Positions 1 through 21,340 of a DNA stretch of 38,157 bases are shown here, piece by piece (the stretch's first letter is position 1; each line of letters opens with the position of its first letter). A model generated the notes under the pieces. The model ran no database searches. It saw only the letters and a program-made list of their open reading frames with translations, and was not told the origin of the DNA. A program made the position numbers and the translations under genes. Source of the stretch: Endomicrobiia bacterium (GTDB taxonomy: Bacteria; Elusimicrobiota; Endomicrobiia; DTEH01); NCBI GenBank assembly GCA_039630545.1, contig JBCNUU010000010.1:1-38157 (forward strand), written 5' to 3'.

Positions 1-169
1 TAAGTGGCTATAGCATCGTTGTTGTAAAGTTCCATGTTAATTAAAGGATCTTCCCATATAACTGAGTCGCGGTTTTTTTATTTTAAATTTTTAAAAAATC
101 AAAAAAATTATTAAATTAAAGTATTACTTTAAAATTTAGAAAATTAAATTTGAAAATGATTTGTCTTGT

Positions 170-904: not shown

Positions 905-913
905 TAAAACACT

Positions 914-2050: not shown

Positions 2051-2066
2051 AAAAAATATAAACCTT

Positions 2067-4441: not shown

Positions 4442-4506
4442 TTCTCCCCCTTTTATTTTAACATATAATATATATAAATTTAAAATTTCTTAAATTCAAC
4501 AATTAA

Positions 4507-6172: not shown

Positions 6173-7083
6173 ATCTCTATATTTACAAGTTTTATTTCTG
6201 GCTCTAACTCTATTCCATATTTTTCTTTTACCTTCTTAATAACATATCTAATTATATTAACAAAATCTTCTGAAGTAGCATTTTTCTTATTTATTATAAA
6301 GTTAGCATGTTTTTCTGAAATATAAGCATCTCCACAGGAAAATCCTTTAAGTCCGCATTCTTCTATTAATTTAGCAGACGAAACCTTACCACCCTGTGGA
6401 TTTTTAAATATACACCCTACATTAAATGTTCCAAGCGGCTGGGTTTTATTTCTTTCAATTAATAGATTAGTTATTCTTTCTTTTAAAAAATTCTTGTCAG
6501 CTGGTTTTAAATTAAAAATCGCTTTAATTATTACAAAACATTCAAGATTACTTTTTCTATATTCAAAATTAATCTCGTTTTTTGAAAATTTTACTATTTT
6601 GTCAGGTTCATCAATTTTTATTGCTTCTATTGATTCTAAATTATCAGAGATAGTAGCTACTTTAGTACCAGCATTCATCATAATAGCTCCTCCAACGCTT
6701 CCAGGTATTCCAAAAAGTTCCTCTAAACCACCAAGCGAATAATCTACAACAGTTTTTATCAACAAAGGTAACATTACACCAGCACCACATAGGACTTTAT
6801 TACTTATTATTTCAAACTTGCAAAATTCATCGCTCAATTTAATTACTACTCCTTCAAATCCTTTATCAGAAATTAACATATTCGAACCAGCACCAATAAT
6901 TAAAACTTTTTGATGAAATTCTTTAGAAAGTTTCAATACCGTAATTAATTCAGAAATATTATTTGATTTAACAAAATATCTTGCCTCGCCACCAATATTT
7001 AATGTAGTATACCTTTTAAGAGGTTCATTGAGTTTTACATCAATATTGTGTTGTTTTAATATGTCAAAGAATTTATCATCCAT
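6169..7083 (-). CDS. murB: UDP-N-acetylmuramate dehydrogenase
   Basis: TTLNIGGEA, GAGSNML, GIPGSVGGAIMMNAG, FEYRKS, QPLG..GCIFKNP, SEKHANFIIN, LEPEI. Confidence 0.97.
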   Translation of the reverse strand: MDDKFFDILKQHNIDVKLNEPLKRYTTLNIGGEARYFVKSNNISELITVLKLSKEFHQKVLIIGAGSNMLISDKGFEGVVIKLSDEFCKFEIISNKVLCGAGVMLPLLIKTVVDYSLGGLEELFGIPGSVGGAIMMNAGTKVATISDNLESIEAIKIDEPDKIVKFSKNEINFEYRKSNLECFVIIKAIFNLKPADKNFLKERITNLLIERNKTQPLGTFNVGCIFKNPQGGKVSSAKLIEECGLKGFSCGDAYISEKHANFIINKKNATSEDFVNIIRYVIKKVKEKYGIELEPEIKLVNIEI

Positions 7084-8455
7084 ATTTTTCTATCAACCAT
7101 TCAGAGATTTTATAAACATTACCAGCACCTAAAGTTAAAATAACAAATTCTTCATTATAGCTTTCTATAAACTTTAAGAATTTTTTCTCATCATATTTCT
7201 CTACATCATATCCGCGACTTTTTAAATCGTTATAAATAAGCAAAGAACTAACACCTTTTATCGGTTTTTCATTAGCAGGATATATATCCAGAATAAAAAT
7301 TTTATGGTTTTTGTTAAATCCTTTATAAAATTCTTTATATAAAAGTTTTGTTCTTGTATATCTATGAGGTTGAAAAAGTATAACTATTTTTTTATTTTTT
7401 ATTTTTTTCTGTAAAGCACTTAAAGTATAATATATCTCTGTAGGATGATGTCCATAATCATCATAAATTTCTATCTGTTTTGAATTGATCTTAATTTTAC
7501 CTTTGAATTCAAGTCTTCTTTCTACTCCTAAAAATTCTTCTAAAGCAAGTTTAATATTGCTAAAATTTATATCACATAAAACTCCATAAGAAATTACAGC
7601 TAAAGCATTTAACACATTATGAACCCCTAATACTTTCAATTTTATGCTTCCTAAAAATTTTTCTTTATAGAACGCTTTAAAACTAGAAAAGTTTTCGTTA
7701 ATTTTTATATCTTTTGCATAAAAATCATTTTTAAAAGATAATCCATATGTATAATATTTTCTTTTTATAAAACCAAGCAAAGACTTTATATTTTTATCTT
7801 CTCCATATAGAATATTAAATCCATAAAATGGAACTGAATTAAAATGATTAAGAAAAGATTCTTTTAGAAAATTTAAATTTTTGTAATAATCTAGGTGATC
7901 ATTGTCAATATTAGTACAAATTACCACATAAGGAGACAACTTTAAAAAAGAACCATCACTTTCATCTGCTTCTACAACAATAAATTTTCCTTTCCCTAGT
8001 CTTGCATGAGAATTTATGTTTTTAAACTTCCCTCCTACTACTATGGTAGGATCCAATCCACATTTTTTTAAAAGCAATCCCATCATAGATGTAGTAGTAG
8101 TTTTTCCATGGGTACCACAAACACTTATAGTATACTTCATTCTTGCAATTTCAGCTAACATTTCCACTCTGGAGATTACTTGAATATTTTTTCTTTGAGC
8201 TTCTTTAATTTCTGGGTTATTTTTGTTAACAGCAGAAGAATACACAACCACATCTGCTGAATTTATGTTTTCTTTTTTATGACCAATGAAAATATTCGCT
8301 CCTAACTTTTTTAACCTGGCAATAACATCTGAATCTTTTATGTCAGATCCAGATACTGTATAACCCATATTTAATAAAACCTCAGCGATTCCACTCATTC
8401 CACTACCACCAATTCCTACTAGATGAATTTTTTTTACTTTACTGAAGGGGTTCAT
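7076..8455 (-). CDS. murC: UDP-N-acetylmuramate--L-alanine ligase
   Basis: GIGGSGMSGIA, GTHGKTTTT, EADESDGSF, DNDHLD, DDYGHHPTEI, FQPHRYTR, TLGAG; ATG at 8455 preferred over the TTG at 8464. Confidence 0.97.
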   Translation of the reverse strand: MNPFSKVKKIHLVGIGGSGMSGIAEVLLNMGYTVSGSDIKDSDVIARLKKLGANIFIGHKKENINSADVVVYSSAVNKNNPEIKEAQRKNIQVISRVEMLAEIARMKYTISVCGTHGKTTTTSMMGLLLKKCGLDPTIVVGGKFKNINSHARLGKGKFIVVEADESDGSFLKLSPYVVICTNIDNDHLDYYKNLNFLKESFLNHFNSVPFYGFNILYGEDKNIKSLLGFIKRKYYTYGLSFKNDFYAKDIKINENFSSFKAFYKEKFLGSIKLKVLGVHNVLNALAVISYGVLCDINFSNIKLALEEFLGVERRLEFKGKIKINSKQIEIYDDYGHHPTEIYYTLSALQKKIKNKKIVILFQPHRYTRTKLLYKEFYKGFNKNHKIFILDIYPANEKPIKGVSSLLIYNDLKSRGYDVEKYDEKKFLKFIESYNEEFVILTLGAGNVYKISEWLIEKYG

Positions 8456-8460
8456 AAAAT

Positions 8461-8859
8461 TCAAAATCGTCCTTTTTCTCTTTTTACTGTGGTTTTTAAA
8501 CCACCACGAATATTAAATTCTAACTCTACATATAGCCATTTTGGCTTTAAAAGTTTATAAAGATCTTCAAAAATTCTATTTACAGCATCTTCATGAATTA
8601 TTTTAACATTTCTATAACTCTGGATATAGTATTTTAAAGATTTAAGTTCTACACATACTTTGTTGGGGATATATTTTATTTTCAAAGAAGCATAATCAGG
8701 CAACTCACTCCATGGGCACACACAACTAAACTCTTGAGTAAATATTTCTATTACTATCCTTTTGCCTATGTATTGATATTTTATAGGCAACAACAAATCA
8801 GCAGAAATTTTGTCGAATACAGGTTTTAAATTTTTAATTTTTTTATATAATTCCTCCAT
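8461..8859 (-). CDS. queF: NADPH-dependent preQ0 (7-cyano-7-deazaguanine) reductase, type I
   Basis: EFSCVCPWSELPDY, QueF motif ELKSLKYY..SYRN..HE, RGG. Confidence 0.93.
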   Translation of the reverse strand: MEELYKKIKNLKPVFDKISADLLLPIKYQYIGKRIVIEIFTQEFSCVCPWSELPDYASLKIKYIPNKVCVELKSLKYYIQSYRNVKIIHEDAVNRIFEDLYKLLKPKWLYVELEFNIRGGLKTTVKREKGRF

Positions 8860-8864
8860 ATAGA

Positions 8865-10055
8865 TTAACCTATTAACACAGATATAAATTTTAAATATTT
8901 AGTTTCTTCAAACATACAACCATATATAGGGTGATCTAATGATTGAGTACCACTATATATTATAAATCCTTTTTGCCTATTTTTCAACATACATTCTATT
9001 ATTATTTTATTTATTTCCTCCTCTGTTAGATGTCTTGAACAAACAGAAAAATTAAAAATACCATCTTTTTTAGTAATTTTTAGCAGGTTTTTTACCATAT
9101 TTTTGTATTTTTTTATAGCACTTTTTTTATCTTTTTTGGATTTTGTGAATGAAGGTGGATCATATATCACTATATCAAATTTTTCTTTATTTTTTTCTAA
9201 AAACTTTTCAACATCCTCTTGAATAAATTCAACTTTTCCTTCTAAATTATTTAATCTGGAATTTTCTTTAGCTAATTGAATCGCATACGAAGAAGAATCT
9301 ATACCTATAACTTTTTTGGCTCCAGAAATCCCAGCTATTATTCCAAATCCTCCTGTATAACAACATAAATCTAAAACCACTTTATCTTTAACTATTTTAG
9401 AAATAAACTCTCTATTAGAAAGTTGATCATAATAAAATCCTGTCTTCTGTCCATTAAATACATCTACTACAAATTCACAATTAAAATGAGTTATTTTTAC
9501 TAAAAAATTAAAATTTTTTTCCTTACAGAAAACTACTTCTTTATTCTGAGGTGCTTTTTCAATATCTCTGTGGTAAAAATCATTTCTTATAATTATACAA
9601 GAGACAGAAAAAATATCTAACAGTGCATTTATAATTTCCTCTTTAAAAATTTCCATTCCATAAGAATAAAATTGTAGCACAAAAACATCTCCATATCTGT
9701 CAATTACCACTCCGGGTAAATAATCACTCTCTCCATATACCAACCTACAATACTCTGTGTTTATCCCCAAACTTTTTCTTAAATTTAACGCCATTTTGAT
9801 CTTATTTATAAAAAAATCTTTATTTATTTTTTCATTTTTGTCAACAGACAAAACCCTAAGCGCTATAAGAGAATAAGGATTATAAACTCCTTTGCATAAA
9901 AATCTATTTTTGTCATCATATAACTCGACATAACCTATCTCCTTAGGTGCATCTTCTTTTTTAATTTCATTAGAAAAAATCCAAAGATAACCATTTTCTA
10001 TACGATTTTTATATTGCTTTGTAGTAAATAAATGATTTATCTTCATATATATCAT
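8865..10055 (-). CDS. rlmI: 23S rRNA m5C1962 methyltransferase, RlmI family (PUA plus class I SAM methyltransferase)
   Basis: GYLWIFSNEI, RLVYGESDYLPG..IDRY, GQKTGFYYDQ, VLDLCCYTGGF, DPPSF, DHP, ETKYLK. Confidence 0.88.
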   Translation of the reverse strand: MIYMKINHLFTTKQYKNRIENGYLWIFSNEIKKEDAPKEIGYVELYDDKNRFLCKGVYNPYSLIALRVLSVDKNEKINKDFFINKIKMALNLRKSLGINTEYCRLVYGESDYLPGVVIDRYGDVFVLQFYSYGMEIFKEEIINALLDIFSVSCIIIRNDFYHRDIEKAPQNKEVVFCKEKNFNFLVKITHFNCEFVVDVFNGQKTGFYYDQLSNREFISKIVKDKVVLDLCCYTGGFGIIAGISGAKKVIGIDSSSYAIQLAKENSRLNNLEGKVEFIQEDVEKFLEKNKEKFDIVIYDPPSFTKSKKDKKSAIKKYKNMVKNLLKITKKDGIFNFSVCSRHLTEEEINKIIIECMLKNRQKGFIIYSGTQSLDHPIYGCMFEETKYLKFISVLIG

Positions 10056-10870
10056 TAGGAAACATTAAGAATAAACAAAAAATTTGATAAGTCGCCAAAT
10101 TTTGAAAAATATTTATAAGCATCTGCCTTATTTAAAGCAACTTCTATATATCCGAAAGAATTTATATAAGCAAGAAGTTCTTTTTCTTTGACTTGAGAAT
10201 AAAATTTATGCAGGCGAACTTTCCATGTTTTAGTGTTACATTTTACTTTAACAAAAAATTTACCATCTGGTTCTTTATTTATAAAATCTTTTTTTAAATT
10301 AGTTATAATATTTCCAAAAGAATCATGAAATAAGTATCTGCCTATATATTCTATACAATTATTTCTCTTAATAACTAAGGGATTTGCAATTTCAAAAATT
10401 TTTACATGTTGAATGTTAATCTTGCAGGCTATTTTTTTAATGTCAACTCCTTTTGAAACATAAGCTGCAACAGGAGACATTATATCTCTTCCATGAAAAG
10501 TATTGCTTATGGGCTTTAAAAAGTATTTATCATTGATAACATTATACACGTCTACTTTATTTTCTCTTATTACTTCAGACAAAACTCCATTATTGGGAGA
10601 AATAAAAATATAATCTGGTGTTCTTAATAAAATTATTTCTCTGTTGCTTCCTACTTCTGGGTCTACTACGCAGATAAATATGCTTCCTTTAGGAAAAAAC
10701 TTATAAGAACTTCCAAGAATAATCATGGCTTGCAGAATGTTTTGAGGTTGAATATTATGACACAAATCTAATATCTCAACGTCTGGGTTTATATTTTTTA
10801 TTACTCCTTTCATCTGACCTACATAAAAGTCATTGCCAAAATCTGTCAAAAGGACTATAAATTTTTTCAT
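10055..10870 (-). CDS. SAM hydroxide adenosyltransferase (DUF62; chlorinase/fluorinase superfamily)
   Basis: LLTDFG, VVDPEVGSNR, SNTFHGRD, DSFGNIITN, NSFGYIEVA; ATG at 10870 overlaps the queE stop. Confidence 0.9.
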   Translation of the reverse strand: MKKFIVLLTDFGNDFYVGQMKGVIKNINPDVEILDLCHNIQPQNILQAMIILGSSYKFFPKGSIFICVVDPEVGSNREIILLRTPDYIFISPNNGVLSEVIRENKVDVYNVINDKYFLKPISNTFHGRDIMSPVAAYVSKGVDIKKIACKINIQHVKIFEIANPLVIKRNNCIEYIGRYLFHDSFGNIITNLKKDFINKEPDGKFFVKVKCNTKTWKVRLHKFYSQVKEKELLAYINSFGYIEVALNKADAYKYFSKFGDLSNFLFILNVS

Positions 10871-11586
10871 TTTATCTTCCAAATTGTTTTATGAAGTTGT
10901 GGTATAATGTATATATTTTTAAGAATATTCTTTAAAGAAGCAAAGAGATTACATAAGTTTAAAAATAAACTTTTATTTTTTTTTCTTAACTCTTCAGTAA
11001 CAGGTTGTAAGACTATTTCTGAAAGATTTGTTTTTTTTATAATACTTTTAATTAATTTAACAGTTTTCAAAGAATAAATTGAACTACCCCCTACTACTAA
11101 CTTAACAAAAAATTTTTTCTTACTTTTTTTGCAAATATCAATACATTTTTTAAACTCTTGAAGAACATTTTTGTTTCTTTTATCATCATCAGGAATTTTT
11201 AAGTCCATTGATATTACATCTATGTATTTTATTATTTTTAATAAGGAATTTGCAACTGACGCATTTGTTTCAAGATATAATTTAAATTTAAACTTCTTTT
11301 TTAATTTATATAGTTGTTCTACTAATAATCCAATATTTGGCTGTATCAACGGTTCGCCTCCTGTTAAACTTATAAATTTTATATTTTTTTCTTTAAGTAA
11401 TTTTTTAATATCTATCAAAACTTTTCTTATATCTACCTTCCTGTTAGTATTCAATTTTGACAACTTTTCATCACAGTAATAACAGTCAAGATTGCAACCA
11501 AAAAATCTTATAAAAATTGTGGGTTCTCCTATATAAAAACCCTCAGCTTGGTAAGAAACAAATATTTCCTTTAAATTTAAATCCAT
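10867..11586 (-). CDS. queE: 7-carboxy-7-deazaguanine synthase (radical SAM)
   Basis: EIFVSYQAEG, FIRFFGCNLDCYYCD (CxxxCxxC), TGGEP, LETN, SMDLK, LQP, PQLHK. Confidence 0.93.
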   Translation of the reverse strand: MDLNLKEIFVSYQAEGFYIGEPTIFIRFFGCNLDCYYCDEKLSKLNTNRKVDIRKVLIDIKKLLKEKNIKFISLTGGEPLIQPNIGLLVEQLYKLKKKFKFKLYLETNASVANSLLKIIKYIDVISMDLKIPDDDKRNKNVLQEFKKCIDICKKSKKKFFVKLVVGGSSIYSLKTVKLIKSIIKKTNLSEIVLQPVTEELRKKNKSLFLNLCNLFASLKNILKNIYIIPQLHKTIWKIK

Positions 11587-11591
11587 AAAAT

Positions 11592-12263
11592 TTACAATAA
11601 AGGATCTTTTAAACCGAGCTTTTCAAAACCAGCTTTTCTATATTTACAAGCATCACATACTCCACAGGGCTTCTTATCCCCTTTATAACAACTCCAAGTA
11701 AGATGTAATGGTACATTTAATTTTACAGCTAGCTTTATTATTTGAGATTTATCATAATTTATAAAAGGAGCAATTATTTTTATTTTCTTCCCAGAAAGTG
11801 CTAATTTGGTTGAAACATTTACCATTTTTTGAAAAGAGTATATAAATTCTTTTCTACAATCAGGATAGCCTGAAAAATCTATTTGATGTGCTCCATAAAA
11901 AATATAATTTATCTTTGTTACCTCGGCTAATGAGACAGCGTAACTTAAAAATATCATATTTCTTGCAGGCACATAAGTAGATGGAATTTTGTTGTTTTCA
12001 AACTTCAGATTTTTATGAACGGGTATTTTTTGCTTTTTGTCTATTAAACTGCTTCCTTTCCATGGAAGGTCGATTTTTACGATGTAATACTTAAGATTTA
12101 AATTTTTTGCTATTTTTTTAGCATAGTTTATTTCTTTTTTATGTCTCTGTCCATAATCAAATATTATACATAAAGGTTCAAATTTTTTGTGTAAAAGGTA
12201 ATAAAGAGTGGTAGTAGAATCTAACCCACCAGAAAGTAAAATTATGCATTTTTTATTCTTCAT
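11592..12263 (-). CDS. queC: 7-cyano-7-deazaguanine synthase
   Basis: SGGLDS, FDYGQRH, TYVPARN, YPDCR, TWSCY..PCGVCDAC. Confidence 0.97.
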   Translation of the reverse strand: MKNKKCIILLSGGLDSTTTLYYLLHKKFEPLCIIFDYGQRHKKEINYAKKIAKNLNLKYYIVKIDLPWKGSSLIDKKQKIPVHKNLKFENNKIPSTYVPARNMIFLSYAVSLAEVTKINYIFYGAHQIDFSGYPDCRKEFIYSFQKMVNVSTKLALSGKKIKIIAPFINYDKSQIIKLAVKLNVPLHLTWSCYKGDKKPCGVCDACKYRKAGFEKLGLKDPLL

Positions 12264-12630
12264 AACTAGCTAGTTGATTTGGAGTTTCCCACACTATTAC
12301 TTTAATGTTATCTATATTTTTATATCTTTTAAGGAATTTTTTTACATTTTCATGAATATATCTTGCTATATTCTCAGCTGTTGGCTGAAAATTTTTAAAA
12401 TACTTTACTTCTTTGTTTAATAACTTATGATCAAGAGTATCTAACACCTTTTTTAAAATTTTTTTTAGTTTAGAAAAATCTATTACCATACCTAACCTAT
12501 TTAACTGTGTACTACTTACGTAAACTCCAACTTTCCAGTTATGGCCATGTAAATTCTCACATTTACCCTTGTACATTTTAAGATAATGTGCAGAAGAAAA
12601 TTGTGATTCTACATATACTTCGTATTTCAT
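12253..12630 (-). CDS. queD: 6-carboxy-5,6,7,8-tetrahydropterin synthase
   Basis: FSSAH, CENLHGHNW, GMVIDF, LDHKLLN, PTAENIA, WET. Confidence 0.95.
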   Translation of the reverse strand: MKYEVYVESQFSSAHYLKMYKGKCENLHGHNWKVGVYVSSTQLNRLGMVIDFSKLKKILKKVLDTLDHKLLNKEVKYFKNFQPTAENIARYIHENVKKFLKRYKNIDNIKVIVWETPNQLASYEE

Positions 12631-13502
12631 AAACATTTAGAGATATTTACTTTTTTGACATAGCTTATTTTTCTATTTAGTAATAACTCTCCAATGTTTG
12701 CAAAATTTTTCGGATCGTCTGTTACAAAAAATCTATAAACAGGCTGTTTTGTAGTAGTATTTAACAAATTCTTCTTTGTAAGAATTTCTTTTACTGCTAA
12801 AGCAGTTTCTATTGCAGAATCCACAACTTTCACATTTTGTCCTAAGATATCTTGAATTACTATTTTAATAGCTGGATAATGTGTGCAACCCAAAATTAAC
12901 ACATCTATGCCTTTTTCTTTTAATGGACTCAAATACTCTAAAGCAACCTGCCTTATTATATTTTCGTGGTTTATACTTTTAAGATAGTAATCTTTATCTT
13001 TATAATATAGTTTATCAATCCATCCTTCTTCTATCAACGGAACAAATAAAGGTGTTGGCTGTGCATATATTTTAACATTTTTAATATATTTTTTTATTTT
13101 TTTCTCATATGCTCTACTTTTAATTGTAGCTTTTGTGCCTATTATTCCAATTGTTTTGTTTTTTGTTAAATTCACTGCTGCACGAGCACCGTTAGTTACA
13201 ACATCTATAATTTCTATTCTTTTAAACATTTTTTTAAGAACAGGTATGGCATATGAAGACGATGTGTTACAGGCTACTACCAATAATTTTATTTTATTTT
13301 TTATTAAGAATTTAGCATTTTCTATAGAATATTTTATTATGGTATCCCTTGACTTATTGCCATAAGGAACTCTTGCTGTATCACCGAGGTATACTATATT
13401 TTCATTTGGCAAAAAATTAATAATCTCCTTTACAACAGTCAACCCACCTACTCCAGAATCAAATAAACCTATAGGTTTTTCTTTTTCACTGTTGATCTTC
13501 AT
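12627..13502 (-). CDS. murI: Glutamate racemase
   Basis: FDSGVGGLTV, DTARVPYG, VACNT, LGCTHYP. Confidence 0.97.
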   Translation of the reverse strand: MKINSEKEKPIGLFDSGVGGLTVVKEIINFLPNENIVYLGDTARVPYGNKSRDTIIKYSIENAKFLIKNKIKLLVVACNTSSSYAIPVLKKMFKRIEIIDVVTNGARAAVNLTKNKTIGIIGTKATIKSRAYEKKIKKYIKNVKIYAQPTPLFVPLIEEGWIDKLYYKDKDYYLKSINHENIIRQVALEYLSPLKEKGIDVLILGCTHYPAIKIVIQDILGQNVKVVDSAIETALAVKEILTKKNLLNTTTKQPVYRFFVTDDPKNFANIGELLLNRKISYVKKVNISKCL

Positions 13503-15027
13503 AATACTTTTTTATAGCAGAAAAAATTCCATCAGCAATCAATTGCTGAAAATCTCGTCTTAACAATTTTAATTCTTCGGTAGGGTTAGATATAAATCCT
13601 ACCTCTACTAAAATGGCAGGCATCTGGGCACCTCTAAGTACATAAAAGCCAGCCTGTTTTACACCACGGGGAATTTGTTGAGTCCTAGAAACACACTCGT
13701 TAACTACTAAACTACAAAGTTTAGATGATTCATTAATGAATTCATTTACTATCATGGACCATAAAAGCTTCTGTAATTTCGAAAGTTCTTCTGTCTTTTT
13801 TTCAAATTTTATTACTTCGTTTTCTAACTTTTCAGTAGCAACAGCATCCGGATCTGTTGCCCTTTCAGAAAGAAAATATGCTTCAAGCCCTCTATCTGTA
13901 CCTGATGGTTTTTCTGAGGCATTACAATGAATTGAAATAAATAAATCTGCATTATTGTCATTTGCAAATTTTGTGCGTTTTACTAAAGGAACAAAAATAT
14001 CATCATCTCTTGTAAGTAAAACAGTAAAACCATTCGCTTCAAGTTTTTCTTTTAAAATTTTAGAAATTGATAAATTAATATCCTTTTCTTTACTTCCATA
14101 TTTACCAACTGCTCCCGGATCTTCTCCACCATGTCCAGGATCAATTACAATAATCCTTTTTTTGATAAAATTGCTATCAACATTAACAGTTGGATATGTA
14201 TTATTTGGATCTGAAGAACTTAAATCATTTTTTTCTTCAGTAAAAATTTTTGCGTTTCTAGCTATTTCTGTTGTGTCTTCGAAATCTATCTTATATATTT
14301 CTAGAATTATTTTATCTTTAAACTCTTCTCTTTTTATTTCAACTCTTTGATTTGTATAAATTTCAACTACAGACTCTCCGTTTTGCTGGGATAATTTTAT
14401 TTTAGAAATTACACTTCCAAAAATCCTGTATTCTTTAGGCTGTAGCTTTTCATTAAAAAAGGTTAAAACAATCTTTTCATCTTCATATAAATATTCGTAT
14501 TGCAAAGCAGAAGTTGATTTTATTTCTATTAAAGCTTTGTCTTTAACAACATAATAACTTACTGATATAGTGTCTAACCAGTTTATTATTAATGTATTTT
14601 CATCTTTTCTAAACTGAGTATCAATATTTAAAATTTTAAGAAATACATTATTGTTAAGTATACTAATAGGCACCAAAACTCTGTTTTTGAAATTTATAAT
14701 CTCAGATGGTAAATAAAATTTTTGTTTTGACCATATGAAATAATTTTTGTTAATATAAAAGTATATTTTTTCTTTCCTGCAATTAAAACTTATGTATTTG
14801 CCTTTTGAATAATAAGTTAAAGTTGCTTTTAGAATTTTAGACAGATCTTTAATCGTGATATATTTATCTTCTTTACCGGCTATTTTATAAACAGGCAATT
14901 CATATATCTTTTCTACATTTACAATGACTTGTAAAGTGGTAAAAAAATCTACTCGAGAATAAGCATTTAATAAATTATTTAAAATTAAAAAAGTAATTCC
15001 TGCTACAAGTTTTTTAAATTTCTTCAT
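13486..15027 (-). CDS. N-acetylmuramoyl-L-alanine amidase (Amidase_3) with signal peptide and N-terminal AMIN/copper-amine-oxidase-like domains
   Basis: Signal-like MKKFKKLVAGITFLIL (ATG at 15027); IDPGHGGEDPGA, EKDINL, FISIHCNA, FYVLRGAQMPAILVEVGFISN. Confidence 0.92.
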   Translation of the reverse strand: MKKFKKLVAGITFLILNNLLNAYSRVDFFTTLQVIVNVEKIYELPVYKIAGKEDKYITIKDLSKILKATLTYYSKGKYISFNCRKEKIYFYINKNYFIWSKQKFYLPSEIINFKNRVLVPISILNNNVFLKILNIDTQFRKDENTLIINWLDTISVSYYVVKDKALIEIKSTSALQYEYLYEDEKIVLTFFNEKLQPKEYRIFGSVISKIKLSQQNGESVVEIYTNQRVEIKREEFKDKIILEIYKIDFEDTTEIARNAKIFTEEKNDLSSSDPNNTYPTVNVDSNFIKKRIIVIDPGHGGEDPGAVGKYGSKEKDINLSISKILKEKLEANGFTVLLTRDDDIFVPLVKRTKFANDNNADLFISIHCNASEKPSGTDRGLEAYFLSERATDPDAVATEKLENEVIKFEKKTEELSKLQKLLWSMIVNEFINESSKLCSLVVNECVSRTQQIPRGVKQAGFYVLRGAQMPAILVEVGFISNPTEELKLLRRDFQQLIADGIFSAIKKYYEDQQ

Positions 15028-15031
15028 ATGC

Positions 15032-16483
15032 TTAAGGAACAGGTAAATATATAACAAAAGTAGCGCCTTTACCTTTCCCTTCAGACATCACTGTAATTTT
15101 ACCTTTATGATGCAATATAATATCTCTAGTAATAGAAAGACCCATCCCAGCAAATTTGTCTTTACTTTTTGTAGTAAAAAATGGCTCAAAAATCAATTTA
15201 AAATTTTCTTTTTCTATTCCACAACCAGTATCTTGAACTTCTACAGCAACATATTTTTTTGAACTATTTGCTTCTTCATCTAATATTGTAGTATATGTTC
15301 TTATTTTAATAAAGTTATTTTTATTTGTTGTATTTTCTGAAATTGCCTGAATTGAATTATTTATTATATTAAGAAACGCCTGTTGTATATGAGGAACTGA
15401 AACTTTTAGTTTTGGTAATTTTTCATCTAACAAAGTTTGGATCTCTATATTATTTGCTTTAAGTTCACTATCAGCAATAAATAAAGTACTTTTTATTACA
15501 TCATTTATATCTACCTCACTATACTCATATTCTTTCTGTCTAGAAAATTTCAAAAGTGTAGCCACGCTTTCTTTGCATCTTAAAGCAGCTCTTTCTATTT
15601 TTTTAACATGTTCTATTAAAGGAGAATCTGCCGGAAGTTTCTCTAACAAAATCTGTGCTTGACCTAACACTCCAACTAAAGGATTATTAAGTTCATGTGC
15701 AATACCTCCTGCCAATTGCCCAATGTTAGATAATCTATCCATCTGTAAAATTTGTGTCTGTAATGTTTTTAAGCTATTTACCATATGATTAAAAGCTGAA
15801 ATCACTTCTGAAAATTCATCTTTAGTTGAAAAGTCTATAGTTGTATAATTACCTTTAGACAAACTATCAGCAAATCTCACTATGATCTTCAAGGGATTTA
15901 TCAGAGAGTTATATACTTTTACTCCGTAGTTGAAACTAATAAATAGAGAAAAACCTATTACAATAAATGAAATAACCCAGCTTAGAACATATAAAAATTG
16001 AATATTACTTTGTAAAGAATTTATCTGTTTTATGCACATACTTTTTTCTTTATTTATATTATTTGTAAATATTTCATATGCCGAAAGGAAATCATTCATT
16101 GCTATGTTTATTTTCTTAATTCTGTCTTTTTCATTAAATATCTTCTCAGCAATGTTTAACAAAACACTATATTCTTTTTCTACATTACTATAAGGCGTTT
16201 TTTGAATATAAAGATTTATAATTCCTTTAATATGAGTGGTTAATAATACAAAGTTTTCTTTTTCTTTTTCTTCTTGAAGCAATATATAATAATCAAAACG
16301 TAATTTTTGAAATCCAACGGTTTGGATAATACTTTCTAACAATCCCAACCTATCTCTCATTTCTACATATCTTATAAAATTTTTCTGTTGAAGATATAAA
16401 CTCAACACTAACCATAATATTAAAGTAAAAATTAATACTACAAAAACAAAAAATATCATTCTTAATTTCTGTCTTATAGTCAT
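15032..16483 (-). CDS. Membrane sensor histidine kinase (TM-periplasmic-TM-HAMP-HisKA-HATPase, NtrB-like)
   Basis: Two TM segments, HAMP (DEFSEVISAFNHM), H-box IAHELNNPL, N-box NIINNS, DTGCGI, FEPFFTTK, GMGLSI. Confidence 0.93.
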   Translation of the reverse strand: MTIRQKLRMIFFVFVVLIFTLILWLVLSLYLQQKNFIRYVEMRDRLGLLESIIQTVGFQKLRFDYYILLQEEKEKENFVLLTTHIKGIINLYIQKTPYSNVEKEYSVLLNIAEKIFNEKDRIKKINIAMNDFLSAYEIFTNNINKEKSMCIKQINSLQSNIQFLYVLSWVISFIVIGFSLFISFNYGVKVYNSLINPLKIIVRFADSLSKGNYTTIDFSTKDEFSEVISAFNHMVNSLKTLQTQILQMDRLSNIGQLAGGIAHELNNPLVGVLGQAQILLEKLPADSPLIEHVKKIERAALRCKESVATLLKFSRQKEYEYSEVDINDVIKSTLFIADSELKANNIEIQTLLDEKLPKLKVSVPHIQQAFLNIINNSIQAISENTTNKNNFIKIRTYTTILDEEANSSKKYVAVEVQDTGCGIEKENFKLIFEPFFTTKSKDKFAGMGLSITRDIILHHKGKITVMSEGKGKGATFVIYLPVP

Positions 16484-16519: not shown

Positions 16520-17236
16520 CTATGTTCTTGAAATTATAATCTCTATACGTCTATTTTTAGCTCTATTTTCTTCAGTATCATTGTTCACAACAGGTTTATG
16601 TTCTCCATAACCTGCTATAGCAAATCTTTCAGGTGGTAAGTTCTTAACTTCTGTAAAATACCTCATCACAGAAATTGCTCTTGCAATAGAAAGTTCCATA
16701 TTATTTGCATATTCTTTTGTTCTAATAGGAACATTATCCGTATGACCTTCTATTATTATTAAATTTGTTGAAGGAAGTGTAGATATCAACTCAGACAAAT
16801 CGTCTAAAACTTTTTTAGCGTTCTCATCTAAGTCTGCCCTACCTGAAGCAAACAATACTGCTCGCTCTGTAAACATAATCCGAATTTTCTGTGCAGTAAT
16901 GTTTACCTGTGCTGCTTCAGACAGCCCTCTTTTTTCCATGTATTCTTTAAGTTTCTGTGCAAATTCTGTCTCTTTTTCTCTTTTTTCAAGCTCTTTTTTT
17001 AACTTTAAATCTAAGTTAGCAACCTGAGCCTGTATTTTATTCATTAAACGTTCATAATTAATATCATTAGAAAAGTAAGTGTAAGCATATAAGACAAAGA
17101 AAAATATCATCAAAAATGTCATAAGATTCCCATAAGGTGTAACCCAACTTTCGGCATCTATCTTGTAATTATCTTCATTTCCTAAAATTTCTAATTTTGA
17201 TTTTATTGTTCTTTTCAGAGTAGTTTTATTATTCAT
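16520..17236 (-). CDS. motB: MotB/PomB-family stator subunit, second copy, with Asn at the conserved ion-binding Asp
   Basis: TM motif WVTPYGNLMTFLMIFFFVLY; OmpA-like PG-binding domain LFASGRA, EGHTDNVPI, NNMELSIARA, GYGEHKP, NRRIEI. Confidence 0.88.
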   Translation of the reverse strand: MNNKTTLKRTIKSKLEILGNEDNYKIDAESWVTPYGNLMTFLMIFFFVLYAYTYFSNDINYERLMNKIQAQVANLDLKLKKELEKREKETEFAQKLKEYMEKRGLSEAAQVNITAQKIRIMFTERAVLFASGRADLDENAKKVLDDLSELISTLPSTNLIIIEGHTDNVPIRTKEYANNMELSIARAISVMRYFTEVKNLPPERFAIAGYGEHKPVVNNDTEENRAKNRRIEIIISRT

Positions 17237-17240
17237 AAAA

Positions 17241-17908
17241 CTATTTTTTAATAATTTTTATCTCTATACGACGATTTTTTGCCTTATTTTCTTCTGTATC
17301 GTTTGGTGCCACCGGCCTATATTCACCATACCCAACACATGAGATTCTTTTTTCTTCTATGCCTTCTTTTATTAAATAATCCCTCACAGAAAAAGCCCTA
17401 GCAGCAGAAAGCTCCCAGTTAGACTTATACTTACCTCCGTAAATAGGGGTATTATCTGTGTGCCCTTCTACTACTATTTCACTAGTAATGGATTTTAAAC
17501 TTTCTGCCACTTCTTTAAGAACAACTAAAGCGGTATCTTTAAGTTCTGCTTTACCTATATCAAATAATACTGGAGAAGGTAAATTTATTACAATTTCTTC
17601 TTCTTTTACCTCTACAGTTGCGATATCTTTAAGCTTTTTTGACAGCTCATCTGTTTGTTCTTCCACTATCTGTTGCTGAGTAACTTCGATTTTCTTACCT
17701 AAATTTGCTAATGCTCGCATAAGCTGTTCTCTTTTTGAAGCACTTAGCCTTGTAAACGCAAATAATATCAAAAAAATAACGCCAGGTTAGTAGACATATC
17801 TGAATAAACTGTTCGCCAGATATTCAAACCTTGTTTTATTTCCTCACTTTCAGTAATTTCTTCTTGGATTTCTTGTTCAATTTCTTCTAATCTGTTTTTT
17901 TCTTCCAT
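17241..17908 (-). CDS. motB: MotB/PomB-family stator subunit, first copy; frameshifted by one missing base in the A7 run at 17770-17776
   Basis: ATG at 17908 reads MEEKNRLEEIEQEIQEEITESEEIKQGLNIWRTVYSDMSTNLALFF then stops. One extra T joins it to LILFAFTR... (ORF 17241-17771), giving 222 aa with EGHTDNTPI, SNWELSAARA, GYGEYRP, NRRIEI. Confidence 0.88.
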
Positions 17909-17910
17909 AA

Positions 17911-18675
17911 TTATTTTTTTCTCTGCCTCATTTTATGTGCTAAAAATGCCTGGAGTCTTCTGCTTACAACAGATGGTAGTTCACCTGCCTGAATTGCTAA
18001 AATACCTTCTATAGCAACCTCTTTAAGTAGTAACTTTTCCTCAGTATAAGCAGCAAGTTTATTAGCAATAGGCAGAAAAATAAAGTTTGTGCCAAATATT
18101 CCATAAAATGTAGTAATCACTGCAACAGCCATAGAAGAACCTATTGCTTCAGGATTTGTAAGATTTTTAAGTACACCCACTACACCTATCAGAGTACAAA
18201 GCAATCCAAATACTGGAGCATAAGCACCCATACCTCTAAAGACTGCATGAATCTGCTGGTGTCTTCTTCTTATAAATGTTATTTCTTTTATTAAGTTTTC
18301 TCTCACAATTTCTGGTGGAAGTCCATCTAATACCATTTGCAGTCCATCTACTAAAAAATGGTCTTTAATTTTAGGCAAACTATCTTGTAAAGAATCCAAT
18401 CCTCCTCGTTTCGCCTCTTCAGCTAAATCAACCAAAAGCCTTATGTACTTTTCTGCTGTCCATCTTTTTTGAGGAAAAAGTGCTAACATCATAGCTTTAG
18501 GAACTCTTTTAAGAATTCGATAAGGATAAGTAAGAAAAGTTGAAGCTATGGTCCCACCCAATACAAGAATTAAAGAAGGAAGGTTATAAATCATGTTTAC
18601 CAATCCACCAGCCTGAAGAGTATAATATACAGCCCAGATACCCAAACCCAACCCAATTACTGTCATCAGATCCAT
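17911..18675 (-). CDS. motA: MotA/PomA-family stator subunit
   Basis: MDLMTVIG, PSLILVLGGT, AKRGGLDSL, FLVDGLQMVLDG, APVFGLLCTLIG, MAVAVITTFYG, FLPIANKL, EGILAIQAGE; SD AAGGAG at 18686-18691. Confidence 0.94.
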   Translation of the reverse strand: MDLMTVIGLGLGIWAVYYTLQAGGLVNMIYNLPSLILVLGGTIASTFLTYPYRILKRVPKAMMLALFPQKRWTAEKYIRLLVDLAEEAKRGGLDSLQDSLPKIKDHFLVDGLQMVLDGLPPEIVRENLIKEITFIRRRHQQIHAVFRGMGAYAPVFGLLCTLIGVVGVLKNLTNPEAIGSSMAVAVITTFYGIFGTNFIFLPIANKLAAYTEEKLLLKEVAIEGILAIQAGELPSVVSRRLQAFLAHKMRQRKK

Positions 18676-18716: not shown

Positions 18717-20230
18717 TTATTTCTTTTTTTCAATTACTTCTGGTTCTATAGTAAAACTTCTTTGTCTTTCTATCTGTTCTTTTATAAATTTACTTCTATC
18801 TATTGTAATTTCACCAGCATTTAATAAATCACGAATAGTTGCAATAATTTTTTCTGTTCAGTTTTTATAACTTTTTCTCCAACTTCACCTAAAAGGTCCA
18901 TCTGCTCTGCTAACATCGCACGCCCACCTTCTGTCAGACAATCCATAACTTTATTTTTTATTTCATCTGAAGCACCTTTTAAAGCTATTGCCAAAGAAAT
19001 TCCTCTCCTTTGGATTTCACGAATAATTTTTTGAAGTGTTGTTTTATCAAGAAATAAAATATCTTCAAATAAGAATATTTTCTCCCTCAATTTTTCAGCT
19101 AAAGATGGATTTTGAATAGACAAAGTTTGCAAGATATCCTCTTGAACATCTTTGTCTGCTTGATCTAATAAGGATAAAAAGTATTCTTCACCTCCTATAC
19201 AATAGTCAATTCTTGACTTTATATTATTTTCAATTTCCTGGACTTCTTTAGGATCTGGAAGTTTAACAGAAGCAAGTTCTAAAGCTACTTTTGCTTGAGT
19301 TTTTTGATCTAACATCATCATAAATTCTGAAACTAAATCAGGAGGTAAATAATTTAATACAAGTGCTATAGTGGAAGGTGCTTCGTCCTTTATAAGATAC
19401 CATAAATTTTTAAGATTAGACCTATTTATAAAATCAAAAAGTTTCCTCTGTGTTTTCTCTTCTTTTTTTCCACCCACAGTTAGTTCAAATGTACCTCCTC
19501 CAAAACCTCCTTGAGGAGCTGGCAAACCCGGAATCTCAACACCAGGTAATAAGCCAGTCTGAGTTTGTCCTGAAATTTCTGTTTTCTCAGTACTTCTAAG
19601 TCTAGCATCTGCTTCTATTCTTAACTGGACAGCTTTAACTATGGTTTTAAAGAAATGAGTAACAGGACCAAATAAAAATAAAGCAATTACAAAAATTATA
19701 AATGGAATATATAAATGAGGTAACATTTGTTCTAATATCATCTGCCATGTAGGTGTTTTTTGAAACTGAATCCTTGTTACATTAATAGTATCTCCACGCA
19801 TTGTGTTTAAACCTAAAAATGAAGGAAGTTCTGTTTTTATTCTATTTACTATATTTTCTGGTAAACTTACATCTACTGCTACATTGATAATAATTCTATC
19901 TATTACAAGTTGCATAGGTAAATTAGTAGCAGGATTTGTTATCGGAAGATATGAATATGTAACACCAGGTAGATATTCTTCTTCTCTAATATACAACCCA
20001 GGGTATTGCTGCTTACTTAAATCTATGTTGCTTGCAGGTGTCTGTTCTGGAGTTTTTATTTCTACAGTTACTAATACGACAAAATTTTTACTTCCTATTA
20101 TTTTTAAAACTATGTCCTCAACTTTCTGCTGGATTGATTTTTCAAGATTAATTTTTTCTTCAGTTAAAGTTAATGTAAAACTGTGGGATATTATTACCAA
20201 GAGAATTAATGTTAGTGCTATCTTTTTCAT
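18717..20230 (-). CDS. fliG: Fusion protein: signal peptide/anchor, FliF-like ring-building domain, TM helix, FliG middle and C-terminal domains; frameshifted by one missing base in the T6 run at 18848-18853
   Basis: FliF RBM3-like LEKSIQQKVEDIVLKIIGSKNFVVLVTV...IDRIIINVAVD...LGLNTMRGDTINV; TM at aa ~173-190; FliG-like FDF..EAPSTIALVLNYL, GG linker, IFLFEDI, LAIALKGAS. One extra A restores QKKIIATIRDLLNAGEI (FliG terminal helix) and extends to a stop at 18717 (504 aa). Confidence 0.85.
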
Positions 20231-20239
20231 GAAAACAAA

Positions 20240-21340
20240 TTATATAAATTCAACTAAAATTTGATTAGCTACAAATTTATATTTTGAGGGGATTATTAAA
20301 TAATTATCCTCTCTTTTCAACTTTCCTTCTTTGATTAACTTTTTTATTATTGTATTATACTTCCTTTGAATACTTTTATTTATTAACAACCCTTTAGTAG
20401 TTCTTAGTGCTAATATTATTTTTTCTTTTAGAGCAACTTCGTCAGGAATGTTTTCTACTTCATATTTAAAGTTCAGGTTTATATACTCCTCTACTTTCGA
20501 TACATTAGTTATGCGTTTTTTATTTAAAAAAGATACTGATGATGTACCTATCCCTATATATTCTTTCCTTCTCCAGTAATTCAGATTATGTAAACATTCA
20601 TATCCACTTTTAGCAAAGTTAGATATCTCATATATATTATAATTATTTTTTGATAAAAAATCAACTATTATTTCATACATCTTCGCTTGCAAATCTTCAT
20701 CAGGAAAATATTTACATTTATAAAAATAACTCCCTTCCTCTATAGTTAAAGCATAACAGGATACATGAGTTGGATTAAACTTTACTGTAAATTCTAAATC
20801 CTGTATTACATCTTTAATTTTTTGGCCAGGAAGTCCAAAAATAAGATCAAAGTTATAGTTACAAAATCCTAATTTTTCAAAAATTTTAACGGCACTTATT
20901 ACATTTTCTATTGTATGTATTCTACCAATGGATTTAAGAATTTTGTCATTAAAACTCTGAACACCTAAACTTAACCTTATATTTTTAGTTAACGAGAAAA
21001 ATAAATTTTTTATCTCTGCTAATTTAAATTCGGTTACACTTTCAGGATTAAATTCTATTGTTATTTCTTTTAGATTTTTAAAATCGAAATGTCTTATTAA
21101 GATATAAAATAAGTTTTCAATCTGCGTTTCATTTAATAAAGAAGGTGTACCGCCACCTATATAAAGAGTAACTATCTGTGGATTTGTTATTAAAAATTTA
21201 TTAAAAAAACAAATTATCTCTTTTTCTATCGAATTGATATAACTATCTAGAAGTTCTAAATTATTAATAGAATAAAAATCACAGTAATAACATTTAGACC
21301 TACAGAATGGAATGTGAACATATAGTCCGTACTTCTTCAT
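20240..21340 (-). CDS. hemW: Radical SAM heme chaperone HemW (HemN-like)
   Basis: LYVHIPFCRSKCYYCDF, GGGTPS, RLSLGVQSF, DLIFGLPGQ, YEISNFA, HNLNYW. Confidence 0.92.
   Translation of the reverse strand: MKKYGLYVHIPFCRSKCYYCDFYSINNLELLDSYINSIEKEIICFFNKFLITNPQIVTLYIGGGTPSLLNETQIENLFYILIRHFDFKNLKEITIEFNPESVTEFKLAEIKNLFFSLTKNIRLSLGVQSFNDKILKSIGRIHTIENVISAVKIFEKLGFCNYNFDLIFGLPGQKIKDVIQDLEFTVKFNPTHVSCYALTIEEGSYFYKCKYFPDEDLQAKMYEIIVDFLSKNNYNIYEISNFAKSGYECLHNLNYWRRKEYIGIGTSSVSFLNKKRITNVSKVEEYINLNFKYEVENIPDEVALKEKIILALRTTKGLLINKSIQRKYNTIIKKLIKEGKLKREDNYLIIPSKYKFVANQILVEFI

Follow-up and report, generated by a model that had tools for sequence, protein, structure and literature searches.

Tandem motB genes in a non-flagellar module of an Endomicrobiia bacterium: MotB1 with, and MotB2 without, the ion-binding aspartate

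Motors of the MotAB/ExbBD/TolQR type are currently modelled with two equivalent aspartates, which act alternately to drive a pentamer round a dimer. The aspartate in question is the invariant transmembrane (TM) residue of the B subunit, D32 of E. coli MotB and D24 of Vibrio PomB. We address the question what kind of motor is encoded by a locus in which a single motA gene is accompanied by two motB genes and only one of the two MotB proteins carries this residue. The locus is part of a 38,157-nt stretch of DNA, here called the window, from the genome of an Endomicrobiia bacterium (Elusimicrobiota; genome G000, completeness 95.49%).

Gene content of the tandem motB locus

Direct reading of the minus strand placed Asp37 of MotB1 at the GAT codon 17798-17800 and Asn37 of MotB2 at the AAT codon 17126-17128, as given in the preliminary description. 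Its further statements that both proteins possess an intact OmpA-like domain (Pfam, 8e-24 for MotB1 and 8.1e-22 for MotB2) and that the two share a single motA were borne out as well; this motA lies upstream of both motB genes (Table 1). The order motA-motB1-motB2 was identical in all tandem loci examined, with intergenic gaps of a few bases or overlapping genes. To judge from its spacing and strand, the histidine kinase gene probably belongs to the same transcription unit.

Table 1. Features of the locus, in window coordinates
Feature	Position	Strand	Evidence
FliF-FliG fusion ('rotor') gene	18717..20230	-	Pfam; ORF as called 18821-20230, 469 aa
motA, 254 aa, flagellar-type A subunit	17911..18675	-	Pfam MotA_ExbB; phmmer
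motB1, two frames: 17766-17908 and 17241-17774	17241..17908	-	translations; OmpA; intact orthologues
T7 homopolymer (A7 on the plus strand), motB1 frameshift site	17770..17776	-	relatives; X1 contig
motB2, 238 aa, Asn37; plug and OmpA-like domain intact	16520..17236	-	translation; Pfam; phmmer
HAMP/HisKA/HATPase histidine kinase, directly downstream of motB2	15032..16483	-	Pfam

MotA was assigned to the MotA_ExbB family (PF01618, 4.4e-22) and resembles the A subunits of the solved MotA5MotB2 and PomA5PomB2 complexes (6ykm, 6ysf, 6ysl, 8brd, 9lu9) in end-to-end alignments with E-values of 1e-40 to 4e-43 (phmmer: 9lu9, 4.3e-43; 6ysf, 1.1e-42; 8brd, 2.2e-40). The alignment with 9lu9 spans residues 1-246 of the 254, in keeping with a four-TM fold and a cytoplasmic torque domain. 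Where 6ysf reads ARREGLLSLED, the MotA of the window reads AKRGGLDSLQD; mapped by hand onto the E. coli numbering that we assume, the rotor-facing charges presumably correspond to Lys at R90 and Gln at E98.

The gene just upstream of motA encodes a membrane-anchored protein in which a signal/TM segment is followed by a periplasmic alpha-beta-beta-alpha-beta domain, then by a TM helix, a disordered linker and the middle and C-terminal domains of FliG (FliG_M PF14841, 7.5e-15; FliG_C PF01706, 3.8e-23). The match to YscJ_FliF_C (2.1e-4, 22.2 bits) stayed below the cut-off of 23.8, and a match to FliG_N (0.0012, 19.8 bits, cut-off 25) at residues 287-371 overlapped the FliG_M region. Instead of a FliG N-terminal domain for a separate FliF, this protein has a TM segment and a periplasmic domain fused to it. 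A relative (P0124) matched FliG of 1lkv with an E-value of 1.4e-32, and its AF2 model was of moderate quality (pLDDT 66.9, pTM 0.33). The torque helix GGRAMLAEQIDLLGEIGEK, compared with KRAAALLKDELEYMGPVRLK of T. maritima, does not show the canonical charge set; by the E. coli numbering that we take to apply, the canonical charges are kept in part only.

Two reading frames of the module are broken in the assembly. A -1 frameshift at an A6 run (18848-18853) interrupts the fusion gene; homologues of 497-520 aa end in ...TEQKKIIATIRDLLNAGEITIDRSKF..., the same end is encoded by the window in another frame, and a Logan contig of 4,314 nt carries a 504-aa fusion which is identical over residues 1-461. 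The N-terminal frame of motB1, ...NIWRTVYSDMSTNLALFF*, which includes Asp37, stops at a TGA right after the T7 run, and the linker and OmpA-like part (PF00691, 8e-24, profile positions 1-98 of 98) resumes in the -1 frame. An open motB1 needs T8, and one added base yields an open frame of 230 aa; intact orthologues of 216-229 aa are present in 12 relatives, all of which read ...LFFL[IM]... through the break point, 5 of them with a T8 run. Programmed frameshifting at TTA TTT TTT TGA was rejected, since all 12 relatives read through and 7 do so without T8. Homopolymer lengths were taken from assembled Logan contigs of 3 DNA runs belonging to one study. Run X1 yielded a contig of 18,088 nt (depth 127.6) in which an extra A behind 17769 restores the motB1 frame, and the X3 contig terminates at 17770, inside the T run. 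The sequencing runs found for the source comprised these 3 DNA runs and no RNA run, and the exact pattern around the T run had no match in metagenome contigs. If the frameshifted motB1 allele is real, the strain would be left with the Asn-bearing protein only. Both breaks sit at homopolymers, T7 in motB1, where T8 is needed, and A6/A7 in the FliG-like gene.

Searches of the 95.49% complete genome with Flagellin_N, FHIPEP and Flg_bb_rod gave no match; flagellin, FlhA and rod genes were not found in it, and the MotB proteins of the locus lack the flagellar-rotor context of MotB/PomB. Flagellin was detected in 13 of 401 sampled Elusimicrobiota genomes. Among the fetched genomes it was present in none with a non-Asp MotB2 and in one with a tandem module (G125, Asp type). 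An ordinary second MotA/MotB pair, with the Asp kept, is encoded on another contig of G000. The FliF-FliG fusion, MotA, MotB1, MotB2 and the histidine kinase form a non-flagellar module and not a flagellar stator. The best explanation of the fusion, motA and the two motB genes is a non-flagellar, flagellar-type rotor-stator module of Elusimicrobiota.

Asn37 of MotB2 and its history

MotB2 (...ESWVTPYGNLMTFL...) contains the TM segment WVTPYGNLMTFL, in which Asn37 occupies the ion-binding position; the invariant Asp of MotB/PomB is absent from MotB2 and present in MotB1. Phmmer alignments with solved structures matched Asn37 to the Asp of MotB from B. subtilis (6ysl, WLVPYADILT) and from C. sporogenes (6ysf, WLATFSDTIT). 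The plug was recognised by MotB_plug (PF13677) with 29 bits, above the cut-off of 24, and the OmpA-like domain is full length (PF00691, 8.1e-22, profile positions 1-98 of 98). Within the N-terminal half, the TM and plug segment is most conserved: W31, P34, Y35, L42, M43 and F46 are invariant in 13 sequences, and the motif flanking Asn is nearly invariant. No compensating acidic residue was found in the TM segment of MotB2 or in TM3 and TM4 of MotA.

Two homopolymer frameshifts at the locus might suggest that Asn37 reflects a sequencing error or pseudogenisation, or that the mutation is private to this genome. These explanations were ruled out, and we give them practically no credence: the contig of run X1 contains the same AAT codon, a GAT was not seen in a same-study contig, and homologues share the residue. 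Asn conservation, proposed as a check in the preliminary description, was found in 7 of 12 tandem-bearing relatives (PYGN[LM]MT, compared with PYAD in 5) and in 52 of the best 120 homologue clusters (56 with Asp, 12 without a match to the regular expression), a frequency which indicates that the identity of the site is not due to chance. The objection that orthologues or reads have GAT here fails, given Asn in other clusters and in an independent contig. As about half of the MotB2 orthologues carry Asp, the module can exist without the Asn. An exhaustive profile search gave 15 Asn, 2 Thr, 2 Ser, 104 Asp and 13 sequences without an aligned TM segment among 136 aligned of the top 150 representatives; this set was restricted to representatives of at most 520 aa, and 14 longer ones were skipped.

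A survey of 73 fetched loci plus the window revealed where the residue varies. Asp is present in all 42 MotB1 and in all 28 proteins of the single-copy MotB type; the 43 MotB2 rows comprise 22 Asp, 19 Asn, 1 Ser and 1 doubtful Asn (L140, genome G247), the open frame of which starts only 11 residues ahead of the Asn. Thr occupies the site in at least 3 further loci among the genome-contig matches listed, about 15 of these 80 matches being Elusimicrobiota modules and most others flagellar MotB (Clostridia etc.). An apparent MotB1-MotB2 fusion (L134, 590-aa open frame) was discarded as a masked stretch read as X. On a tree of concatenated MotA, MotB1 and MotB2 (39 modules, 673 columns, IQ-TREE careful), Asp and non-Asp (Asn/Ser) states of MotB2 require 5 changes, 4 of them forced by starred branches, and none of 200 bootstrap trees was compatible with a single change. 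Loss of the carboxylate is thus recurrent and confined to MotB2. Purifying selection acts on MotB2 as it does on MotB1, with dN/dS values of 0.075-0.18 (9 pairs, 1 more being saturated) and 0.09-0.17 (6 pairs), respectively, which also speaks against a pseudogene. The Asn of MotB2 is real, old and under selection, and the interpretation in the preliminary description is supported in part; two corrections to it are a motB1 frame that is split in this assembly and a module that is non-flagellar.

MotA differs with the type of MotB2. Gly in GIFG of TM4 is found in 17 of 20 modules with a non-Asp MotB2 versus 0 of 20 with an Asp MotB2, and the middle Thr of TTT in 16 of 20 versus 0 of 20. Such a difference fits a position of MotB2 inside the MotA channel; in an independent-pairs test, with only 3-5 phylogenetically independent contrasts, the association was not significant.

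Possible arrangements of MotA, MotB1 and MotB2

According to the accepted 5:2 scheme, ion binding and release alternate between the two Asp residues, one ion per 36-degree step. MotA of the module most likely forms the usual pentamer, as suggested by its resemblance over the full length to solved MotA5B2 and PomA5B2 units, and the axle within it would most likely pair MotB1 with MotB2 instead of two identical chains. Asp37 of MotB1 would then be the sole protonatable carboxylate, and Asn37 of MotB2, like Ser or Thr in other lineages, would act as a permanently neutral polar residue resembling an Asp that is always protonated. Such an axle may consume a single ion for every two steps, with the half-step at Asn completed without an ion of its own, which would lower ion cost and torque per turn or result in a ratchet-like cycle. 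Both OmpA-like domains may anchor the unit to peptidoglycan, and the cytoplasmic face of MotA would work on the FliG-like domain that the fusion protein carries. A MotB1 that always has Asp, a MotB2 with Asp, Asn, Ser or Thr, and their invariant co-encoding are as predicted if MotB1 and MotB2 share a unit in which one site conducts. Judged from sequence, we give a MotA5-MotB1-MotB2 unit that has a single protonatable site an even chance of being correct. A more specific version, in which the MotB1-MotB2 axle is obligate, the MotB2 carboxylate has repeatedly been dropped because one site suffices, and the motor, spending half as many ions on each revolution or working as a ratchet with one site, drives a membrane ring of the FliF-FliG fusion rather than a flagellum, is put forward tentatively and is somewhat more probably wrong than right.

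Function is lost upon the D32N substitution of E. coli MotB or its counterpart in PomB, and these alleles are dominant-negative, so a mixed Asp/Asn dimer might simply be dead. Asp-to-Asn stators assemble yet do not conduct, which would also agree with two homodimeric units sharing one MotA: a conducting MotA5(MotB1)2 and a non-conducting, peptidoglycan-anchored MotA5(MotB2)2 that serves the same FliF-FliG ring as brake, clutch, spacer or scaffold. MotB2 has kept the plug, the OmpA-like domain and the conserved TM segment, as needed to sit inside MotA. The only studied motA-motB1-motB2 operon, going by the accessible part of its report, is that of Aquifex aeolicus (Takekawa et al. 2015, PMC4525482); there, each MotB functions alone with MotA in chimeras, which argues for alternative homodimers as the default wherever motB genes lie in tandem. 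A dead paralogue, however, should decay, and MotB2 has been maintained with a dN/dS of about 0.1 in 19 or more clusters formed at 50% identity. Nor do homodimers account well for a carboxylate that was lost 4-5 times in MotB2 and never in MotB1 (42/42), or for genes that are closely spaced and always in the same order, which suggests equimolar co-production of MotB1 and MotB2. We regard two separate homodimers as rather unlikely.

MotB2 units might instead conduct without a carboxylate, the Asn, Ser or Thr coordinating a coupling ion such as Na+ together with the extra Thr in TM4 of MotA. The replacements in MotB2 are always small and polar, the TM4 Thr and Gly follow the non-Asp modules in the counts given above, and MotA is about equally similar to A subunits for Na+ or divalent cations and for H+ (9lu9 and 8brd). 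To our knowledge, however, the TM carboxylate is essential in every 5:2 motor tested, Na+-driven PomB included; the MotA association loses significance once relatedness is allowed for, and it would be left unexplained why MotB1 never loses its Asp. Conduction of this kind appears improbable. Slightly less credible still is a MotB2 that resides outside MotA as a membrane-tethered, peptidoglycan-binding accessory retained in the operon, an anchor of the MotY or Pal type. An intact OmpA-like domain in a protein that has lost the catalytic residue would suit this role, but a plain anchor would need neither a TM and plug segment more conserved than the rest of the N-terminal half nor a MotB_plug match above the cut-off.

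Comparison with known motors and implications

The module resembles several known systems, each of which differs in some respect. Both MotB proteins resemble those of flagellar stator units in having one TM segment, a plug region and an OmpA-like domain, and a FliG C-terminal domain is encoded next to them; unlike in those units, no flagellum genes were found in the genome, two B genes accompany one A gene and one B protein is devoid of the Asp. The flagellar rotor differs by the FliF-FliG fusion and by the torque helix charges, which presumably are only partly canonical here. Tandem B paralogues behind one A subunit also occur as ExbB-ExbD1-ExbD2, even in the same genome (G000:C6, locus L007), but that ExbD pair is of the Ton/Tol rather than the MotB type and has Asp in both proteins (PMIDIVFQLIIFF each).

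Judging by the portions available of the respective reports, the Aquifex operon (PMC4525482) shares the order of one motA followed by two motB genes, whereas in the module described here the TM segments are strongly divergent and Asp is limited to MotB1. In the same sense, AglR-AglQ-AglS of Myxococcus (PMC11761067, PMC9389320) is a non-flagellar gliding motor of the 5:2 type with two B-type genes, and AglR5-AglQ-AglS, modelled with an AglQ-AglS heterodimer as axle (PMC11761067), is a precedent for a two-gene axle; AglQ and AglS, however, are TolR-like, both are described as having kept the mid-membrane Asp, no FliG-like partner appears in these portions, and their heterodimer is itself only predicted. 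Heterologous pairs are also described for TPH-vWA transducers in the accessible text of PMC12204202. The FliF-FliG fusion of Chlamydiaceae (Bergeron 2016, PMC4768692) likewise joins a shortened FliF to FliG in a non-flagellated lineage; the corresponding extract describes a FliG M-like domain and no MotA/MotB partner, whereas the fusion reported here has both the M and the C (torque) domain.

A natural one-site unit of the MotAB/ExbBD/TolQR type was not described in the literature searched. The module may be a natural rotary motor, driven by ions through one working site only, in a bacterium without a flagellum. MotA, MotB1 and MotB2 are small, and their expression in E. coli is conceivable. 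A lineage that has repeatedly dropped one of the two carboxylates, with the protein kept under selection, provides a ready-made test of whether both sites are needed and how many ions are used per step, and the Asp/Asn asymmetry offers a mechanistic handle on an undescribed, flagellum-free rotor-stator module of Elusimicrobiota.

Genomic setting of the tandem MotB pair

The FliG-like ORF, motA, motB1, motB2, a kinase gene and an amidase gene follow each other in this order on the minus strand. Direct translation reproduced exactly the coordinates of the two ion-binding codons given in the preliminary description, Asp37 of MotB1 (in ...NIWRTVYSDMSTNLALFF, followed by a stop codon) and Asn37 of MotB2 (in ...ESWVTPYGNLMTFL...), and the OmpA-like domains proved to be intact in both proteins, with the Pfam OmpA domain complete in each. 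A phmmer search against solved structures aligned Asn37 of MotB2 to the Asp of MotB from B. subtilis (6ysl) and C. sporogenes (6ysf).

Features of the module and neighbouring genes (window coordinates)
Feature	Position	Strand	Remarks
FliF-FliG fusion gene	18717-20230	-	frameshifted at A6 run 18848-18853
FliG-like ORF as called, 469 aa	18821-20230	-	Pfam FliG_M 7.5e-15, FliG_C 3.8e-23
YscJ_FliF_C	within 18821-20230	-	weak match 2.1e-4, below cut-off
FliG-like torque helix	~18880-18940		aligned with 1lkv
motA	17911-18675	-	MotA_ExbB 4.4e-22
MotA segment of torque interface	18390-18420		aligned with 6ysf
MotA TM4	~18060-18110		AVAVITTFYGIFGTNF
motB1, between motA and motB2	start frame 17766-17908, rest 17241-17774	-	complete OmpA domain; seven-T run 17770-17776
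MotB1 Asp37	17800-17798	-	GAT
motB2	16520-17236	-	complete OmpA domain; passes MotB_plug
MotB2 Asn37	17128-17126	-	AAT
HAMP/HisKA/HATPase kinase	15032-16483	-	
AMIN/Amidase_3 amidase		-	last gene in this order, after kinase

The surroundings of the module (1-15057 and 20240-21340) contain cell-wall and division genes, namely those for an amidase, glutamate racemase, MurC, MurB, Ddl, FtsA and FtsZ, as well as a PilT-like ATPase and queuosine genes; neither an outer-membrane barrel nor a giant surface protein was found in these two stretches. In the genome, which is 95.49% complete and comprises 1.6 Mb in 82 contigs, searches with Flagellin_N, FHIPEP (FlhA) and Flg_bb_rod were all negative. An ordinary MotA/MotB pair that has the Asp (WMVSYSDLVT; contig C34, locus L001, 1009-2523) is encoded elsewhere in it, as is a second FliF-FliG-like protein of 631 aa with C-terminal TPRs (contig C12, locus L003, 265-2160); the two lie on different contigs and are not visibly adjacent. 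An ExbB/TolQ-like gene followed by two tandem ExbD/TolR-like genes (L007, G000:C6:17357-20698, 528-2238, minus strand) provides a contrast to MotB1 and MotB2 within the same genome, because both ExbD-like proteins carry PMIDIVFQLIIFF and thus keep the Asp.

Occurrence of Asn and other replacements in MotB2

Close homologues were assigned by their source names to Endomicrobia/Endomicrobiia and Elusimicrobia. A first survey of 41 related genomes revealed the motA-motB1-motB2 tandem in 12, not counting the genome of the window itself. Each of these 12 has Asp in MotB1, and MotB2 reads PYGN[LM]MT in seven (families f1, f3 and f5) and PYAD in five. Among the best 120 clusters of 1,598 homologues, 52 have Asn, with identities reaching down to about 43%, 56 have Asp and 12 were not matched by the regular expression. 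The AAT codon is unaltered in X1, a Logan contig of a sequencing run from the same study (18,088 nt, depth 127.6). An error or a private mutation is excluded as the origin of the MotB2 Asn, and the Asp/Asn asymmetry is confirmed and extends beyond the window.

MotB-type matches at E 1e-30 or better occurred in 181 of 401 genomes of the phylum in a profile search. The loci compared, 60 fetched from the best-scoring places among the 150 matches listed (a further 447 lay beyond the list) plus 13 others, represent a selected sample and not a census. HMM alignment classification of the fetched loci separated two architectures, Type I (fusion-motA-motB1-motB2) and Type II (motA-fusion-(~1.4 kb)-single motB). 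In this sample the ion-binding position is Asp in every MotB1 (42/42) and every single MotB of Type II (28/28), and MotB2 comprises 22 Asp, 19 Asn, one doubtful Asn (L140, whose frame opens only 11 residues before the residue), one Ser and one fragment without a TM helix. Three more loci taken from genome contigs (L061, L068 and L077) carry Thr (PYGTMM), and a further such locus, from the genome that also provides the Ser case above, has Ser (PYGSLMT; L042/L139). The replacements of Asp in MotB2 are not always Asn, but always small and polar. When a profile of non-Asp MotB2 was searched exhaustively against 1.84 billion representatives and the best 150 were taken, the 136 of at most 520 aa (14 longer ones were skipped) comprised 104 with Asp, 15 with Asn, two with Thr, two with Ser and 13 without an aligned TM helix. 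Several genomes (G138, G153, G178 and G041) have both kinds of Type I module, with one copy of each.

Flagellin was matched in 13 of the 401 sampled genomes, in 10 of them over the cut-off. No fetched genome with a non-Asp MotB2 gave a flagellin match; among those with the tandem module only G125, of the Asp type, did so. Outside Elusimicrobiota, a contig of Candidatus Termititenax (Margulisbacteria-related; L051, 3754-14609) carries a similar, flagellum-free-looking module of FliF-like, separate FliG-like, MotA and MotB (FFTIWADLNSFL) genes, directly followed by an open frame that exceeds 2,300 aa.

Frameshifts and allele variants in the module

In the window motB1 is split by its T run, which is followed by TGA, and the remainder continues in the -1 frame. 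A conserved slippery site at this position is ruled out, because in each of the 12 relatives examined the frame stays open across it as ...LFFL[IM]..., with T8 in five and other codons in seven. Logan contigs from three runs of one study were compared with the window. X1 has one additional base in the T run, which makes MotB1 intact, and differs further by two substitutions and by an 8-nt insertion at 17232, where the motB1 stop and the motB2 start adjoin (TCATAAAA on the plus strand). The insertion is a tandem duplicate of the stretch containing the motB2 start codon, and a second in-frame ATG would preserve the motB2 ORF. Another contig, X3, terminates exactly at 17770.

FliG-like homologues of the fusion have 497-520 aa and a C-terminal end ...TEQKKIIATIRDLLNAGEITIDRSKF..., which the window encodes in another frame after the A6 run. 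A 4,314-nt Logan contig of the same study carries a form of 504 aa, whose residues 1-461 are identical, and the 469-aa form is recorded in both NCBI and Logan. A scan of all 285 homopolymer runs in the window for sites at which a one-base insertion would join frames with a gain of at least 40 aa yielded the motB1 run as the sole intragenic site and five further sites judged to lie at gene junctions; the A6 site gains less than 40 aa and was detected through homology. The two frameshifts detectable in 38 kb are therefore confined to a single module. The same study also contains an intact allele of either gene, and the broken ones could be assembly errors or real strain or on-off variation.

Evolution and possible function of the Asp/Asn pair

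All MotB2 sequences clustered together (SH-aLRT 90), next to the Type II MotB, in a quick-search MotB tree of 116 rows from which the site columns had been removed. A firmer result came from a careful IQ-TREE analysis of concatenated MotA, MotB1 and MotB2 (39 modules and 673 columns, after masking of the ion-binding site and of TM4 in MotA). Here the Asp/non-Asp label requires five changes, four of them forced by well-supported branches, or about four changes when the doubtful L140 is left out, and a single change was permitted by none of 200 bootstrap trees. The direction of change is unrooted on this tree; every outgroup has Asp. Pairwise dN/dS values from five close genomes were 0.075-0.18 for motB2 (nine pairs, one more being saturated) and 0.09-0.17 for motB1 (six pairs), which are rough because synonymous sites are near saturation.

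The MotB2 TM motif W-x-x-P-Y-G-N-[LM]-M-T hardly varies, and no compensating acidic residue was found elsewhere in this helix or in MotA TM3/TM4. In MotA TM4, the Gly of GIFG accompanies 17 of 20 non-Asp and 0 of 20 Asp MotB2, and the middle Thr of TTT 16 of 20 and 0 of 20, respectively; with only 3-5 independent contrasts, this association is not significant.

The FliG-like protein of a relative (P0124) aligned with the middle and C domains of T. maritima FliG (1.4e-32). Its AF2 model (pLDDT 66.9, moderate) predicts an N-terminal helix, a periplasmic domain, a TM helix, a disordered linker and a helical FliG part. The periplasmic domain is modelled as alpha-beta-beta-alpha-beta with a long conserved loop, an order which we take to be that of a ring-building motif. 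By mapping, the MotA/FliG-like interface appears to retain one of two classical charge pairs: R90/D288 is presumably kept as Lys (MotA) and Glu (FliG-like), and E98/R281 seems to be missing from either side, with Gln and Gly in its place (E. coli numbering).

The carboxylate was lost repeatedly, and in a B subunit only where the gene directly upstream encodes a sister that has the Asp; gene order is fixed, purifying selection on MotB2 continues and its channel-facing helix is conserved. The simplest explanation for these facts is a single MotA pentamer around both MotB1 and MotB2. In such a unit, which on these sequence comparisons has about an even chance of being real, the single Asp of MotB1 would be sufficient and the Asn of MotB2 would take the part of an Asp in its protonated state. 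In model organisms, Asp-to-Asn exchanges leave the stator dead, which speaks for the main rival, a separate non-conducting MotA5(MotB2)2 unit serving as a brake or anchor; we regard it as rather unlikely. It also gains from the tandem MotB proteins of Aquifex, each of which is reported to work singly (PMC4525482). Less likely again are a carboxylate-free conduction path in MotB2 units, which we consider improbable, and a role of MotB2 as a pure anchor, slightly more improbable still. The interpretation in the preliminary description, a shared one-site stator or a brake or anchor, is backed in part.

For AglR5-AglQ-AglS a heteromeric axle has been proposed by prediction only, and both B chains, AglQ and AglS, are said to retain Asp, whereas MotB2 lacks it (PMC11761067, PMC9389320). 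Chlamydiaceae are reported to have a natural fusion of FliF with FliG (PMC4768692). A full-text literature search, with most subscription journals outside it, did not reveal any description of a naturally occurring MotB-type paralogue that lacks the Asp or of this Elusimicrobiota module; papers mentioning 'Elusimicrobi' together with 'MotB', judged mainly by title and abstract, do not deal with it. The components belong to the MotA, MotB (MotB1), OmpA-like and FliG_MC families; MotB2 lacks the Asp that defines MotB, and the system as a whole does not qualify as flagellar. As a motor, the module is a new form of an established type.
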